Assembly (NCBI GenBank): GCA_018303575.1 | Contig: JAGVXW010000016.1 | Coordinates: 1 to 38,407 of the forward strand | Direction: 5' to 3' | Source of the DNA: Candidatus Woesearchaeota archaeon | GTDB lineage: Archaea; Nanobdellota; Nanobdellia; Woesearchaeales; WJIZ01 | Length of the DNA: 38,407 nt | Shown here: positions 32,754 through 38,128 of the stretch, one piece after another | How positions within the stretch are numbered: the stretch's first letter is position 1 | Layout: each line of letters opens with the position of its first letter | The notes under the pieces: generated by a model | Told to the model about the DNA's origin: nothing | What the model saw: only the letters and a program-made list of their open reading frames with translations | Database searches by the model: none | Made by a program: the position numbers and the translations under genes

Positions 32754-33797
32754 CTAGAATATCTTGTATCTCAACATCGCCGCTATCCCTCCCAAGCCAT
32801 CCAAGCGCTTCCCGGCGTCATTCTTGGAGGAGATGACGTGGATTGCGGCTTTCTGGCTGTCCGCGGTTTTCAATAGCGACTCAATGGGCTGGAAAGCTGC
32901 ATCCTGGCGCTTCATTTGGATGAAGCCGTCGGTAATCAAGAGCTGTTCCGCGGCCCCGGATTGGACGGATCTCGCGACCTCCTTTTCTCCATACGCGGCC
33001 TTGCCTGAGACCGCGATTTCCTTTAGCAAAGCTTCGACGAGCTTGAGCTCTTTCGCTGTCCTGTCTGCCGAGAGTGCTGTCTTGACTTCCTCTCTCTTGA
33101 GCACCTCATCGATCGCCTCCTTTCCGACAGAAGAGCAGGTTGCCAGCACGATGGATTTTTTTCTTGCCTGCGGAACCACTTTCATCAGCTCTTCTTTCCA
33201 GAACGCGGGGGAGGCGATGACGAGGACAGAAGGCTTGATTCGGTCGGCGACCTCAAAGAGCTTGGCCGCGATCTCCTCATAGAAGTTTGATGTTTGGCCA
33301 GAATCCATTCCCTTCTTCGCTACCTTCCCTTCAAGATGGGCGATAACCTCATAGCCGTATTTCTTCGTCGCCGCGAGATAGGCCTCTTCGCGATCGTGGA
33401 CAAGGATGAGGATGGGAGCGTGCTGCTGGGCACAGGCCTCTTCTAACTTCTCCTTCTGGTAGGAGAGCCAATGCTCCTTTTCAAGCGTGAAATCGACGTG
33501 CGGCTCCAGAATGAAGCTATGATGCTCGCCGTGGGACAAATCTTCCGGGCCTTCCACGACCCTGCCCAGGACGCGGAGCGTGTCCCCCCATTCCAGCTTC
33601 TCCACCTGGATCTTGATGAAAACCGGGATTTTAGCCGCCTTCTGGGTGCGGTCTTCCTGCGTGCCTACTTTCATCTTGCGGAGCGTCTTGCCGGACACGA
33701 AATCTCCCGAGTCTATGATCTGGCTCAGGTACCAAAGATCATCCTGGGTCTCCACCATCAGATGGAACTTCCCGCGCTCTGAGGACAGCTTTTTCAT
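32754..33797 (-). CDS. pelA: Pelota/Dom34 mRNA-surveillance (no-go decay) factor
   Basis: 347 aa, ...GKFHLMVETQDDLWYLSQIIDSGDFVSGKTLRK... Sm-like N-domain plus eRF1-like central and C-terminal domains. Confidence 0.9.
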   Translation of the reverse strand: MKKLSSERGKFHLMVETQDDLWYLSQIIDSGDFVSGKTLRKMKVGTQEDRTQKAAKIPVFIKIQVEKLEWGDTLRVLGRVVEGPEDLSHGEHHSFILEPHVDFTLEKEHWLSYQKEKLEEACAQQHAPILILVHDREEAYLAATKKYGYEVIAHLEGKVAKKGMDSGQTSNFYEEIAAKLFEVADRIKPSVLVIASPAFWKEELMKVVPQARKKSIVLATCSSVGKEAIDEVLKREEVKTALSADRTAKELKLVEALLKEIAVSGKAAYGEKEVARSVQSGAAEQLLITDGFIQMKRQDAAFQPIESLLKTADSQKAAIHVISSKNDAGKRLDGLGGIAAMLRYKIF

Positions 33798-33918: not shown

Positions 33919-35079
33919 ATGCGAAAAGCAGCCATGAATGCCACTATTCTCATCGCCGTGATCTCAGCGCTCATCATCCTCTACATCCTGTTTCTCCCGA
34001 GCGAAGAGAGATTGGATATCATCGGCGAGAACGAAAGCAGCCGTGATTTCGGGCCTGACAAGGAGGATGTGCTCCTGGAGGACACGAGCGTCATCATGGA
34101 GCACTTCGCCGAGGACGAGATTGAGCATACGCTGCCCAGCCTGACGCTGTACAGCATCACCACAGCCAGCACGGTGAAGGAAGTGGCTTCCTTCTATGTC
34201 AAGAAGACGCTGTTCAGCGAGCAGAAACGAGACATCGACTTTGAACTGGGCGAAGAGGCGCAGAACGTGCTGCTCAGCTTCTCCGTGCGGAAGGCGAAGG
34301 GCGATCTTATCGTTGAAGTGAACGGCAAGCAAGTGTGGAGCGGGCCGATTGAGAAAGTGAACGCAGATCCTATCCGCGTGCCAAAAGACGCGCTTTCGAG
34401 CCAGAATACCGTAACGTTCCGGGCCTCGAGCCCCGGCCTCGCCTTCTGGAGGACGCATGAATATTTGATTGAGAATTTCAAGGTGACCGCTGACTTGGTT
34501 GACACGAGCAGCCAGCGCGCCAAAGTGGACTTTGTTGTCGGCAAGGAAGAGGCGGGGCACATTGAAAAAGCTACTTTGCGCTTCGTGGCTGAATGCGAGA
34601 CCGGGAGAGTGGGGGTGCTGGACATCCTGATCAATGACAGGGGCGTCTACAGCTCTGTGCCGGACTGCGGAGTGCCCCGGCCCTTGGTGTTTGACTCCAA
34701 ACTGCTGATCGAGGGCGAGAACACGCTCGAGTTCAGGAGCACAAAGGGGAGATATGTATTGGATCAGCTCAAGATCACCACCAAGCTTGAGGAGATCCCG
34801 AGCTTCACGTATTTCTTCGACGTTGATTCTGACCAGTTCAAGGACATCCGCGAAGGCAGGAAAACGGCCAACTTCACGCTCTTCTTCACCGACGACAAGG
34901 AAGACAAGGCCGCGGAGATCATCATCAATGGCAGGAAAACTTTCATGACGCGGCATGAGGAGTTCGAGTGGAGCCTCATCCTCGACCGGTTCCTGGAGCA
35001 GGGCTCGAACAGCCTGAAGATCATCCCTGACACGCGGCTGGAAGTGAGGCGGCTCCAGGTTGTTCTGGATGACACGTAA
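33919..35079 (+). CDS. Signal-anchored extracytoplasmic protein with three ~95-aa tandem repeat modules
   Basis: 386 aa. N-terminal TM ATILIAVISALIILYILFL. Three modules share ..DF.......L.F.........(L/I).(I/V).(I/V)NG+.V.........(L/F)..G.N.(L/V).F......Y.(L/I)..(L/F)K(I/V). Confidence 0.75.
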   Translation: MRKAAMNATILIAVISALIILYILFLPSEERLDIIGENESSRDFGPDKEDVLLEDTSVIMEHFAEDEIEHTLPSLTLYSITTASTVKEVASFYVKKTLFSEQKRDIDFELGEEAQNVLLSFSVRKAKGDLIVEVNGKQVWSGPIEKVNADPIRVPKDALSSQNTVTFRASSPGLAFWRTHEYLIENFKVTADLVDTSSQRAKVDFVVGKEEAGHIEKATLRFVAECETGRVGVLDILINDRGVYSSVPDCGVPRPLVFDSKLLIEGENTLEFRSTKGRYVLDQLKITTKLEEIPSFTYFFDVDSDQFKDIREGRKTANFTLFFTDDKEDKAAEIIINGRKTFMTRHEEFEWSLILDRFLEQGSNSLKIIPDTRLEVRRLQVVLDDT

Positions 35080-35093
35080 AAAAGAGGTGGCCT

Positions 35094-37163
35094 TTGGATA
35101 GGGCGCAACAGAGGGAGGCAGCAGCTAACGTTCTCGAGTCTGGAGTCGCAGGCCCTGAAGCCATTCCTGTGGGCATGGCGATGAAGGCATGGGGAGCGCG
35201 GAAATGGGAAGGCGCCAAAGCTTCTGCGCGCGACACTAAGGACCGCACTGTCGAAAGCGTGAGAGCGCTTCCGGGGAATGCGTGGGAGGGCATCAAGAGC
35301 CGCGCCTCGGATGCCATAGGCAAGAAATCCTGGGGGAACCTGGGCTTGCTCATGGTCGTTTTTGCTTTCATCATCAACATCTGGCTGGACACTTACTATA
35401 ACTTCGGCGGGTTTGACCTCACCAAGTATGGACAAATCAGCTCTCTAAGCGATCTTGCTGGGATTGCAAGCCTGTATTTCATCATCAAGGGCCCGATTCT
35501 GGTGATGCTCGCGTTAGTGGGGGCGTTCGTGCTCAACCGCGGACATGCCGGGCTGCGGCTTTTTGTCGCGATTGTTGCAGTGACCTACGGCCTCTCGCAG
35601 CTGCCTCTTATCGCGCAAGGCTACCTAGTGATGGCTGGCCTGGACATGCTCGTGTTCCTGGCATTCTGCATCCAGATGCTCACCAATCCCAGCCGCGAGG
35701 AATTCACTGAGAAGATGCTGTTCTGGATTCCTGTATACGGGCTCCTGACCATGAGCCTGGCCTCGGGGAACATGGGCGCTGTCATCCACCTCTCCTTCAT
35801 CATCGCCTTCTATCTTTTCCGCGGAAGGGCGTACAAACAGACAGATCGGGGGTTCCGGCTCAACTTCATCTATCTCGTGCTCTTCGACTTCTTCATCATG
35901 TGGGCACTGCAGTTTGCGCCGACGTACGGCTTTTTCCAGTGGACTGACATCCCGATCCTGCTCCTCGGCACGATGTTCATCGTGCAGATCTATGAGCCGA
36001 GCAAGCTCAGCGGCCTCCTGCTCTTTTTCGTCTGCCTTGGCCTGGTGTTCTCCTTCGGCTATGGCTACCTAGCCTATGCGGCTGGCGACGGAGGAGCGAT
36101 GAAAAGCATTGGTCTTGATGCCGATACCATGGCGCAGCGGTGGGCGATCGTGAACCCCGTCTCCTCCATCTCCAAGCTCGTCAGCGCGATGTATACTGGC
36201 ATCAACCGCAGCATCGCGATCGCGTCCGGGGACTCGTATACGGGAAGCGTGGACGAGAACGCGAAGAAGAAGCTGGGCGTATTTTTGGAGGATGTGGAGA
36301 AGAATCAAAAGCAGTTCACCCAGGGCGACAAGATCGTGCTCTTCGGCACGCTCACCGCTGAAAATCTCGTTGATGCACAGGGCAGGCCGCAGAAGCCGTT
36401 CATGGTGCATACAACGTGCGTCGCCTATAATCTCAAAGGTGAGCCATTTTACGGTGTGATCTACCCCCATGCCGACTTTCAAGTGGAGCAGTATCTTGTT
36501 GAGACGGTGCAGTGCAGCTTCGATCCTGAAAAAGAGATCCCGCTTCCTCCGGGAAGGTATGAGTTGGCCATCCGGGCTGATTTCGAGTTCCTGAGCGAGG
36601 CGTATCTCAAGCGCTACTTCGTCTCAAAGGAACGGGTGGATGCGCTCCGGAGGCAGCGGCAGATCGAGAAGGACGAGGACATCCTCACGCTCAACGGCAT
36701 CTCCGACACCAGGCCAGAGGCGGAGAGCAGCGCCGGGCCGGTGAAGATCAAGGCGAGCGACCGCATCCCTGCTGTCCTGAAGCTCGGCAACGACTCCACC
36801 ATCCTTTATTTCGGCCTCCTGCTCGAGAATGCCTGGAAGGGCGCGATCCAGAACATCACCGAAGTGAGGATCTCCGTGCCTGAAGGCATTGAAATAGAGA
36901 ACTGCGCGCCCTATGAGATCGGCGGGCGGGAAGACCTTCCTGAGGAGAGATACAGTGTTTACAGCATCGCGCCGCGCACCGGGGCGCAGACCGCATATAC
37001 CACCGTGCCCTGCTACCTCAATCTTCCATCGAGCAACGGCCTGCTGCTCGACCAGGGGGAGGTCACGACGCGCTATTTCCGGATAGCGGCGCTCTACAAT
37101 TACACGCTTGAGCAGAGATTCATGATGCGCGTGCTCGAGCCTTCTGCGCCGGTGAGTCCATGA
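35094..37163 (+). CDS. Polytopic (~9 TM) membrane protein with a ~360-aa C-terminal extracytoplasmic domain
   Basis: 689 aa. TTG start 5 nt after the GAGGTG SD (35084-35089). ~85-aa charged N-terminus, nine hydrophobic segments (aa ~83-330), then a soluble two-module domain. Confidence 0.75.
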   Translation: MDRAQQREAAANVLESGVAGPEAIPVGMAMKAWGARKWEGAKASARDTKDRTVESVRALPGNAWEGIKSRASDAIGKKSWGNLGLLMVVFAFIINIWLDTYYNFGGFDLTKYGQISSLSDLAGIASLYFIIKGPILVMLALVGAFVLNRGHAGLRLFVAIVAVTYGLSQLPLIAQGYLVMAGLDMLVFLAFCIQMLTNPSREEFTEKMLFWIPVYGLLTMSLASGNMGAVIHLSFIIAFYLFRGRAYKQTDRGFRLNFIYLVLFDFFIMWALQFAPTYGFFQWTDIPILLLGTMFIVQIYEPSKLSGLLLFFVCLGLVFSFGYGYLAYAAGDGGAMKSIGLDADTMAQRWAIVNPVSSISKLVSAMYTGINRSIAIASGDSYTGSVDENAKKKLGVFLEDVEKNQKQFTQGDKIVLFGTLTAENLVDAQGRPQKPFMVHTTCVAYNLKGEPFYGVIYPHADFQVEQYLVETVQCSFDPEKEIPLPPGRYELAIRADFEFLSEAYLKRYFVSKERVDALRRQRQIEKDEDILTLNGISDTRPEAESSAGPVKIKASDRIPAVLKLGNDSTILYFGLLLENAWKGAIQNITEVRISVPEGIEIENCAPYEIGGREDLPEERYSVYSIAPRTGAQTAYTTVPCYLNLPSSNGLLLDQGEVTTRYFRIAALYNYTLEQRFMMRVLEPSAPVSP

Positions 37164-38128
37164 AATGGATTCTCTTCCTCTCCTTGCTGCTGCTCACGGC
37201 CTGCATAGATGCCGGAACCACTTCCGACGAAAAGCTGCATACGGGCACTGAAGGGATTGTGCTGAACTTTCCTGAGGACGGCCTGACTGAGGAGATCGTC
37301 GAGGGGGAGCGCTTTGTGATTCCGCTCATCCTTGAGAACAAAGGGGCGGCTGACGTGAGCAGGGACGCGCCGGCTGTGCTGCAGTTGTCGCTTGAGCCTG
37401 ACGTGATGATCTTCTCATTATGGGACATCACGCCAGAGATGCGCGAATCCGGACAGAGCGTACTGTTCCCTTTGAACGGGAAAGCGCTGGCGACGATCGC
37501 CGGCGAAAAGACGCGGCTCCGAGCTTTGCTTCAGGCCAAGCCCATTGACCCGACGCTTAATAAGATAGAGACGCGGGTGCTGTTCTCGGCCTGCTATCCT
37601 TATCTGACCCAGCTTGAGGAGCAAACCTGCATCGATCCCAAGCCGGATAGCTTAATCAGAAAGAGTTGCACTCCTGAGACTCTTGAGAGCGATGAGGGGC
37701 AGGGCGCGCCTGTGGCAATCACGGAAGTGAAGCAGACCATGCTTCCAGGGGACCATCCTGACGACGTGCGTGTGCAGTTCCTGATCACCGCGAAGAACGC
37801 CGGAGAAGGGGTTTTGCTGCACCATGAAGATTATCCTTTGGCCTGCCTCGGAAGGGACGGCTCGAAGAAGCCGGGGATTTATGTGACCAAGGTCGCGTTT
37901 TCCGACTTTTCCTTCATTGAAGGCAAGGGCGGGGACATCGAATGCAACCCCCAGCCCATGCGAGAGATCGAGGACGGCTTCGAGACGCGATGCACGCTGA
38001 ATAATGGCATCCCCCGGAGCACGCCAGCTTTTACGACTCCGCTCAGCATTGAACTGCGCTATGGATATAGAGAGACGATCTCGCACGAATTGAGCATCTT
38101 AAGCGCGACGGCGGAAAGGGATTCGTAG
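37160..38128 (+). CDS. Predicted lipoprotein, paralogous to the ectodomain of the preceding membrane protein
   Basis: 322 aa. MKWILFLSLLLLTAC has a lipobox L-T-A-C. ATGA overlap with the upstream stop. The module GIVLNFPEDGLTEEIVEGERFVIPLILENKG parallels GVFLEDVEKNQKQFTQGDKIVLFGTLTAENL in the upstream protein. Confidence 0.75.
   Translation: MKWILFLSLLLLTACIDAGTTSDEKLHTGTEGIVLNFPEDGLTEEIVEGERFVIPLILENKGAADVSRDAPAVLQLSLEPDVMIFSLWDITPEMRESGQSVLFPLNGKALATIAGEKTRLRALLQAKPIDPTLNKIETRVLFSACYPYLTQLEEQTCIDPKPDSLIRKSCTPETLESDEGQGAPVAITEVKQTMLPGDHPDDVRVQFLITAKNAGEGVLLHHEDYPLACLGRDGSKKPGIYVTKVAFSDFSFIEGKGGDIECNPQPMREIEDGFETRCTLNNGIPRSTPAFTTPLSIELRYGYRETISHELSILSATAERDS

Follow-up and report, generated by a model that had tools for sequence, protein, structure and literature searches.

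Probable paralogy between the ectodomain of an integral membrane protein and the neighbouring lipobox protein in a conserved surface operon of DPANN archaea

The locus and its genes

The DNA analysed here (hereafter the window) comprises 38,407 nt, positions 1 to 38,407 of contig JAGVXW010000016.1 from the assembly GCA_018303575.1 of a Candidatus Woesearchaeota archaeon. Towards its end it carries three genes that were named P3, ECTO (encoding a polytopic membrane protein) and LIPO (encoding a lipobox protein), P3 being the gene before ECTO. An earlier note on this DNA had proposed a paralogous relation between the ectodomain of ECTO and the LIPO protein, with two modules laid out alike in both, and this proposal was borne out by transitive sequence searches and predicted structures. 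The explicit, controlled demonstration of ECTO-LIPO homology is new here.

P3, ECTO and LIPO1 (the LIPO gene in first position) all lie on the plus strand, in that order and beside pelota, which is the gene order of the conserved module (Table 1). The ECTO gene starts with a TTG codon that has the Shine-Dalgarno-like site GAGGTG 5 nt upstream, and GGTGAG precedes the 4-nt ATGA overlap of the ECTO and LIPO genes, an arrangement that probably couples their translation. Hydropathy analysis of ECTO, which the earlier note had described as a protein with nine transmembrane segments, revealed ~9-10 hydrophobic segments before aa ~330, from aa 79 to 328; the peptides quoted in that note were all found in the sequence. 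The LIPO signal peptide carries a lipobox that matches the pattern [LVI][ASTVI][GAS]C (MKWILFLSLLLLTAC). The lipobox cysteine was present in the 94 LIPO family members (94/94), and a lipobox-like [GAS]C context in 78 of them. One copy of the domain would be tethered by an integral membrane region and the other by this cysteine, through which LIPO is predicted to be lipid-anchored.

When P3, ECTO and LIPO were compared with Pfam and NCBIfam, no family was matched at E<=1, including CARDB and DUF11, and the database homologues of the three proteins are labelled Nanoarchaeota/Woesearchaeota. With the divergent pelota gene upstream, these labels identify the organism as a member of the DPANN archaea. 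To sample relatives, 301 genomes from the same class were searched in six frames. Forty relative loci were fetched (41 with the window), and seven further loci were fetched later for weak ECTO matches.

Table 1. Features of the window and hydrolase fusions of ECTO orthologues in relative loci
Feature	Position	Strand	Remarks
pelota	32754-33797	-	divergent, upstream of P3
P3	33919..35079	+	386 aa; opens the module; N-terminus of signal-anchor or pilin-like type; three ~95-aa internal repeats
ECTO gene	35094-37163	+	689 aa, polytopic membrane protein
ECTO N-terminal cytoplasmic stretch and polytopic membrane region	35094..36215	+	aa 1-374; predicted from hydropathy
ECTO ectodomain	36225..37139	+	aa 378-682; probably homologous to mature LIPO (jackhmmer, hhalign, AF2)
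ECTO Module A	36276-36626	+	~aa 395-511; helical linker next
ECTO Module B	36720-37136	+	~aa 543-681
ATGA overlap	37160..37163	+	ECTO stop codon overlaps LIPO start codon; read from the sequence
LIPO gene	37160-38128	+	322 aa, lipobox protein
LIPO signal peptide and lipobox	37160..37204	+	LLLTA-C15
Mature LIPO (LIPO1)	37205..38128	+	position-1 paralogue of the family in the conserved operon
LIPO Module A	37256-37633	+	~aa 33-158
LIPO Module B	37712-38101	+	~aa 185-314
Non-coding tail to contig end	38129..38407		279 nt; LIPO2 and LIPO3 occupy the same place in relatives
ECTO with SLT	L031:10628-12817	-	hydrolase after ectodomain
ECTO with SLT	L042:10257-13379	-	hydrolase after ectodomain
Other ECTO-hydrolase fusions	L048:6321-8249, L033:5228-7087, L050:5797-7971	+, -, + respectively	glucosaminidase in two, Peptidase_M23 in one

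Profile comparison of ECTO and LIPO

When profiles were built from the relatives, the similarity between the two families emerged. Alignment of 21 ectodomains with 61 LIPO proteins by hhalign gave a probability of 41% (E 2.8e-4), and with 36 ectodomains and 94 LIPO proteins this rose to 75% (E 2.5e-5) over 159-164 collinear columns in the register of the earlier note, pairing ECTO aa ~484-683 with LIPO aa 133-316. A second profile-profile run on the 36 and 94 sequences gave 74.5% and E 2.7e-5. The real score was 43.5, as compared with 17.7+-2.9 (maximum 26.4) for 60 block-shuffled profiles, a distance of ~9 standard deviations (SD); a reversed profile scored 14.8 and 60 column-shuffled profiles 10.3+-1.5. 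Module B alone was aligned with a probability of 87% and E 3.7e-6.

ECTO was also compared with a divergent LIPO subfamily, LIPOfirst, which adjoins ECTO in other orders. In this case E values of 1.4-2.5e-5 were obtained over 257-260 columns that span both modules, and the Module A pairing seen earlier by eye was reproduced (GV.l.. / ..V.i.a.l.a with G..L.F / F.V.v...N.g). Under the alignment, the two families have their best-conserved residues at matching positions: P549/P184, N579/N213, G583/G217, C640/C278, Y668/Y301 and Y670/Y303 (ECTO/LIPO).

The modules were also compared with each other, with E 0.003 for Modules A and B of ECTO (36216-37160) and E 0.007 for Module A of ECTO and Module B of LIPO. 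A C...aromatic-x-aromatic strand closes both modules. These observations hint weakly at an old internal duplication from which the two modules would derive.

Transitive sequence searches

Reciprocal searches with hidden Markov models (HMMs) linked the two families at the level of single proteins. The LIPO HMM matched 4 of 150 ECTO representatives (E 1.2e-6, 3.7e-5, 1.9e-4 and 5.7e-3), the ECTO HMM matched 3 of 94 LIPO proteins (E 9.8e-6, 3.1e-4 and 7.3e-4), and the reciprocal alignments share a common C...C and Y.Y register. No match at E<=10 was obtained in the controls, which consisted of reversed sequences, 750 shuffled sequences and P3 proteins.

The class-wide search with the ECTO profile also gave weak matches in frames of ~290 aa. 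The seven loci fetched for these matches contain the same operon, and lipobox proteins from these loci of other orders were matched by both profiles. One such bridging protein, L072_6994_7959, was matched by positions 2-303 of the LIPO HMM (E 4e-7) and positions 101-301 of the ECTO HMM (E 3.9e-5), while L076_5019_6269, L077_5284_6366 and L075_5869_7026 were matched by the ECTO profile with E 1.3e-14, 3.6e-14 and 1.5e-12, respectively.

An iterative jackhmmer search was seeded with the window LIPO and run on 1,960 open reading frames (ORFs) with an inclusion threshold of E 1e-4. ECTO proteins entered from iteration 3 and the window ECTO at iteration 6 (E 7.6e-22), where LIPO aa 37-315 were aligned with ECTO aa 378-682. 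There was no drift, since neither P3 proteins nor unrelated ORFs were included (0 of each). In an unrooted FastTree phylogeny the LIPO proteins of divergent orders grouped with ECTO (support 0.93); no order of events was drawn from this tree.

Predicted structures

Models of both proteins were obtained with AlphaFold2 (AF2), with a pLDDT of 94.3 and a pTM of 0.87 for LIPO, and 90.3 and 0.86 for the ECTO ectodomain. Each model consists of two beta-sandwich modules of eight strands, with a similar strand order and strand-length pattern, and in both models each module closes with an unusually long strand of 24-25 residues. The linker between the modules is helical in ECTO and coil in LIPO. When DSSP states were placed on the sequence-derived alignment they agreed at 74% of positions, compared with 34-57% after shifting, and secondary-structure strings aligned alone gave z = 3.3 relative to element-shuffled controls.

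Foldseek searches of the PDB with the two models retrieved the same generic tandem immunoglobulin-like (Ig-like) entries, with E 1e-4 to 1e-7 and template modelling (TM) scores of 0.2-0.3, among them integrin alpha legs, complement MG domains, AmoB, antigen I/II, PrgB, RbmA and pilins. No specific family emerged from the PDB or from the viral BFVD, where only generic tandem Ig-like matches were found, and profile searches of PDB sequences found nothing.

Homology or analogy

One important question is whether the similarity reflects common descent or analogy, that is, whether both proteins are simply tandem CARDB/Ig-like beta-sandwiches that share strand motifs such as x-V-x-V-x-N-x-G. Several results weigh against common descent. 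The pairwise BLASTP comparison suggested in the earlier note, ECTO aa 380-689 against LIPO, was not significant (best E 1.4), and a shallow hhalign run with 7 and 15 database homologues gave a probability of 0.15%; because of these two failures, the similarity seen by eye does not exceed chance when judged from the two proteins by themselves, and at this level the proposal falls short of the sequence part of the refutation criterion set in the earlier note. The Foldseek matches, generic and with low TM scores, also speak for analogy. The hhalign probability was at most 87%, and Module A alone was not significant by sequence (hhalign E 0.037). Addition of the best 150 ECTO representatives, drawn from a library of 1.84 billion proteins, lowered the probability to 12-54% (E 1e-4 to 3e-3) with the register unchanged. 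We attribute this drop to the order bias of the added sequences, and it indicates that the hhalign probability alone is not decisive. The alignment is unstable in the stretch that separates the N.G.G strand from the Cys pair, where C604 pairs with either C229 or C262.

Analogy nevertheless fails to account for the reciprocal HMM matches, for the bridging proteins that both profiles match on the same residues, or for the convergence of jackhmmer without drift. Block-shuffled profiles retain the local motifs and yet score far below the real pair, P3, a beta-rich protein of the same operon, shows no similarity, and neither ECTO nor LIPO matches the Pfam models for CARDB, DUF11 or any other family. 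Analogy is therefore largely refuted and appears very improbable. For the stretch that begins at the end of Module A and includes Module B, homology is very probable, and with a probability of about 0.85 the ECTO ectodomain (aa ~378-682) and LIPO are ancient paralogues over the whole two-module domain, as judged from sequence profiles and structural models. For Module A, the presumed homology rests on the full-length alignments and the predicted structures.

Conservation of the operon in relatives

The LIPO family was found in 153 of the 301 class genomes, usually as 2 or 3 tandem copies, and the ECTO profile detected ECTO in 160. Of the 40 relative loci fetched, 36 carry the genes in the single order P3-ECTO-LIPO, with one to three LIPO copies; the remaining four comprise three with P3 and LIPO only and one with a lone LIPO. 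The loci L056, L060, L064 and L067 have no adjacent ECTO gene, which means that LIPO can occur without a neighbouring ECTO; in the reduced variants among them, P3 is directly followed by a single LIPO gene. P3 precedes ECTO in 38 of the 41 loci and pelota adjoins the module in 26 of 41, often with RFC on the other side. ECTO and LIPO are thus shown to follow P3 as genes two and three of a class-wide, conserved DPANN surface operon, P3-ECTO-LIPO(1 to 3). Public data contain 2,094 ECTO representative clusters at 50% identity; a homologue search of the protein library with a further alignment retrieved 15 proteins and did not widen the taxonomic reach.

All 20 fetched relative loci of the window's order have three LIPO genes, contiguous in 17, and in these relatives LIPO1-LIPO2-LIPO3 is followed by RFC. 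The window has one copy in place of three tandem paralogues and ends 279 nt after it. This tail contains no ORF, and the intergenic gaps in relatives are only ~30-60 nt. No other LIPO copy was found in the window's own assembly (69.6% complete), and a homologue of the RFC small subunit lies at the very start of another of its contigs (C46:158-823). The end of the contig after LIPO1 and the position of this RFC gene suggest an assembly gap rather than gene loss, and most likely LIPO2 and LIPO3 of the window were lost in this gap.

The ectodomain of ECTO is conserved among orthologues, whose membrane regions have very different lengths and numbers of hydrophobic segments. Five of the 21 ECTO orthologues of the window's order continue after the ectodomain into a cell-wall hydrolase (Table 1). 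The window ECTO has no hydrolase domain and no SLT domain in Pfam at E<=1. Long C-terminal extensions, in part rich in Cys, bring some position-1 LIPO proteins of relatives to 549-909 aa (L035:8899-10548(-), L039:9619-11283(-), L043:8775-10427(+) and L049:8731-11460(+)); the two that were tested, from L039 and L049, gave no Pfam match.

The internal triplication of P3 described in the earlier note was confirmed at profile level by self-comparison with hhalign (probability 98%, E 2.4e-14; ~aa 97-281 against 194-376, window 34216-35070). The possibility that P3 is also related to the ECTO/LIPO domain was rejected, with hhalign probabilities <0.5% against both ECTO and LIPO. The N-termini of P3 orthologues (L031-L070) read M..KKGQ followed by ~20 hydrophobic residues and resemble the class III (type IV pilin-like) signal peptides of archaea; that of the window P3 (33919-34000) reads MRKAAMN|ATILIAV. 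A prepilin peptidase is encoded in the same genome (C1:13219-13539, L071; PF01478, E 2e-14).

A possible surface complex

In line with the extracellular assembly suggested in the earlier note, we propose that ECTO, the LIPO copies and probably P3 may form a heteromeric complex of fixed composition on the external side of the membrane. The integral ECTO subunit would serve as anchor and, in some relatives, also as carrier of a C-terminal cell-wall hydrolase. Since the window ECTO lacks an enzyme domain, the complex would here be a structural or adhesive surface scaffold. The tight coupling and fixed gene order of the operon, in which one integral copy and as many as three lipid-anchored ones accompany a pilin-like P3, fit such a membrane-tethered complex, to which we give roughly even odds. 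The loci in which LIPO has no neighbouring ECTO gene count against it.

Alternatively, the true paralogues might act independently, as surface adhesins or binding proteins of different specificity that were kept in tandem by duplication. LIPO copy number varies from 1 to 4 between orders, loci with P3 and LIPO only occur, and the tandem Ig-like fold is generic and adhesin-like, with antigen I/II, PrgB, RbmA and pilins among the Foldseek matches. However, the 20 fetched loci of relatives in the window's order all keep three LIPO genes, the position-specific LIPO subfamilies are ancient in the wider sample, and the genes overlap or abut tightly. Composition is fixed in this way more typically among the subunits of a complex than among redundant adhesins, and we consider independent action unlikely, although it is the stronger of the two alternatives to a complex. 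The alternative of the earlier note, a carrier and its substrate, in which the LIPO copy would be handled, exported or matured by the membrane-fused one, is highly improbable, since this idea draws only on gene adjacency and a polytopic membrane region of unassigned function, whereas that region matches no transporter or enzyme family in Pfam or NCBIfam, its poor conservation in length and segment number suits an anchor better than a machine, and a carrier has no evident need for the fold of its substrate.

The heteromeric complex might go further than a scaffold. One integral and three lipid-anchored two-sandwich paralogues together with P3 could make up a DPANN-specific envelope machine, hetero-oligomeric and pseudo-symmetric, a new cell-contact device in which the integral subunit presents exchangeable effector domains (in relatives, cell-wall hydrolases) to partner or prey cells. 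We regard this as speculative and unlikely. If true, the paralogy of ectodomain and LIPO would record the origin of the machine by duplication of a single surface domain.

The ECTO and LIPO families match no Pfam, NCBIfam or solved-structure sequence, and the gene set is widespread and unstudied. Since the membrane-fused domain and LIPO probably belong to one domain family, the module can be described with P3 and the ECTO/LIPO domain as its only components. This suggests a hetero-oligomer of paralogues and provides confident models for the design of pull-down experiments or multimer predictions. Because the integral copy is joined to bacterial cell-wall hydrolases in relatives, the module is a concrete candidate for the means by which Woesearchaeota-like archaea contact other cells, and it may bear on cell contact in uncultured DPANN lineages.

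Comparison with known systems

The hydrolase fusions appear to tie the module to the SLT-domain proteins of Castelle et al. 2021 (PMC8204110). Those proteins (fam00969) are membrane-bound or extracellular proteins of DPANN archaea, as are the ECTO orthologues in which SLT occurs; the window ECTO differs from them in having no hydrolase domain. The passages of that work that were searched contain no mention of the operon, of the two-module ectodomain or of a relation between that ectodomain and LIPO.

In archaeal lipobox lipoproteins, as studied in Haloferax volcanii, anchoring through an archaeol thioether depends on AliA/AliB, and AliA (arCOG02177) is stated to occur in DPANN (PMC12462473). 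The window LIPO likewise has an N-terminal signal peptide that ends in a lipobox with an invariant cysteine. None of the lipoproteins described resembles the mature LIPO domain in searches of Pfam, NCBIfam and PDB-sequence profiles.

Two consecutive beta-sandwiches are also found in tandem Ig-like surface domains such as the integrin alpha thigh and calf, complement MG domains, the C-domains of streptococcal antigen I/II, RbmA and the CfaB pilin. Sequence identity of these structures to the ECTO and LIPO models is 7-12%, at TM scores of 0.2-0.3, and unlike them the ECTO/LIPO family has the 24-25-residue terminal strand in each module and the Cys and Y.Y motifs as its specific traits.

A parallel in organization is offered by the WxL (Csc) surface-complex loci of enterococci and lactobacilli, which are operons of several secreted beta-sandwich proteins with differing anchors that form a cell-surface complex. 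WxLIP (PDB 9i1y/9i25) was among the Foldseek matches of the LIPO model (E 7e-4), a weak and generic match. The WxL loci differ in that the window proteins have no WxL, DUF916 or DUF3324 domains, the host is an archaeon and the anchors are different.

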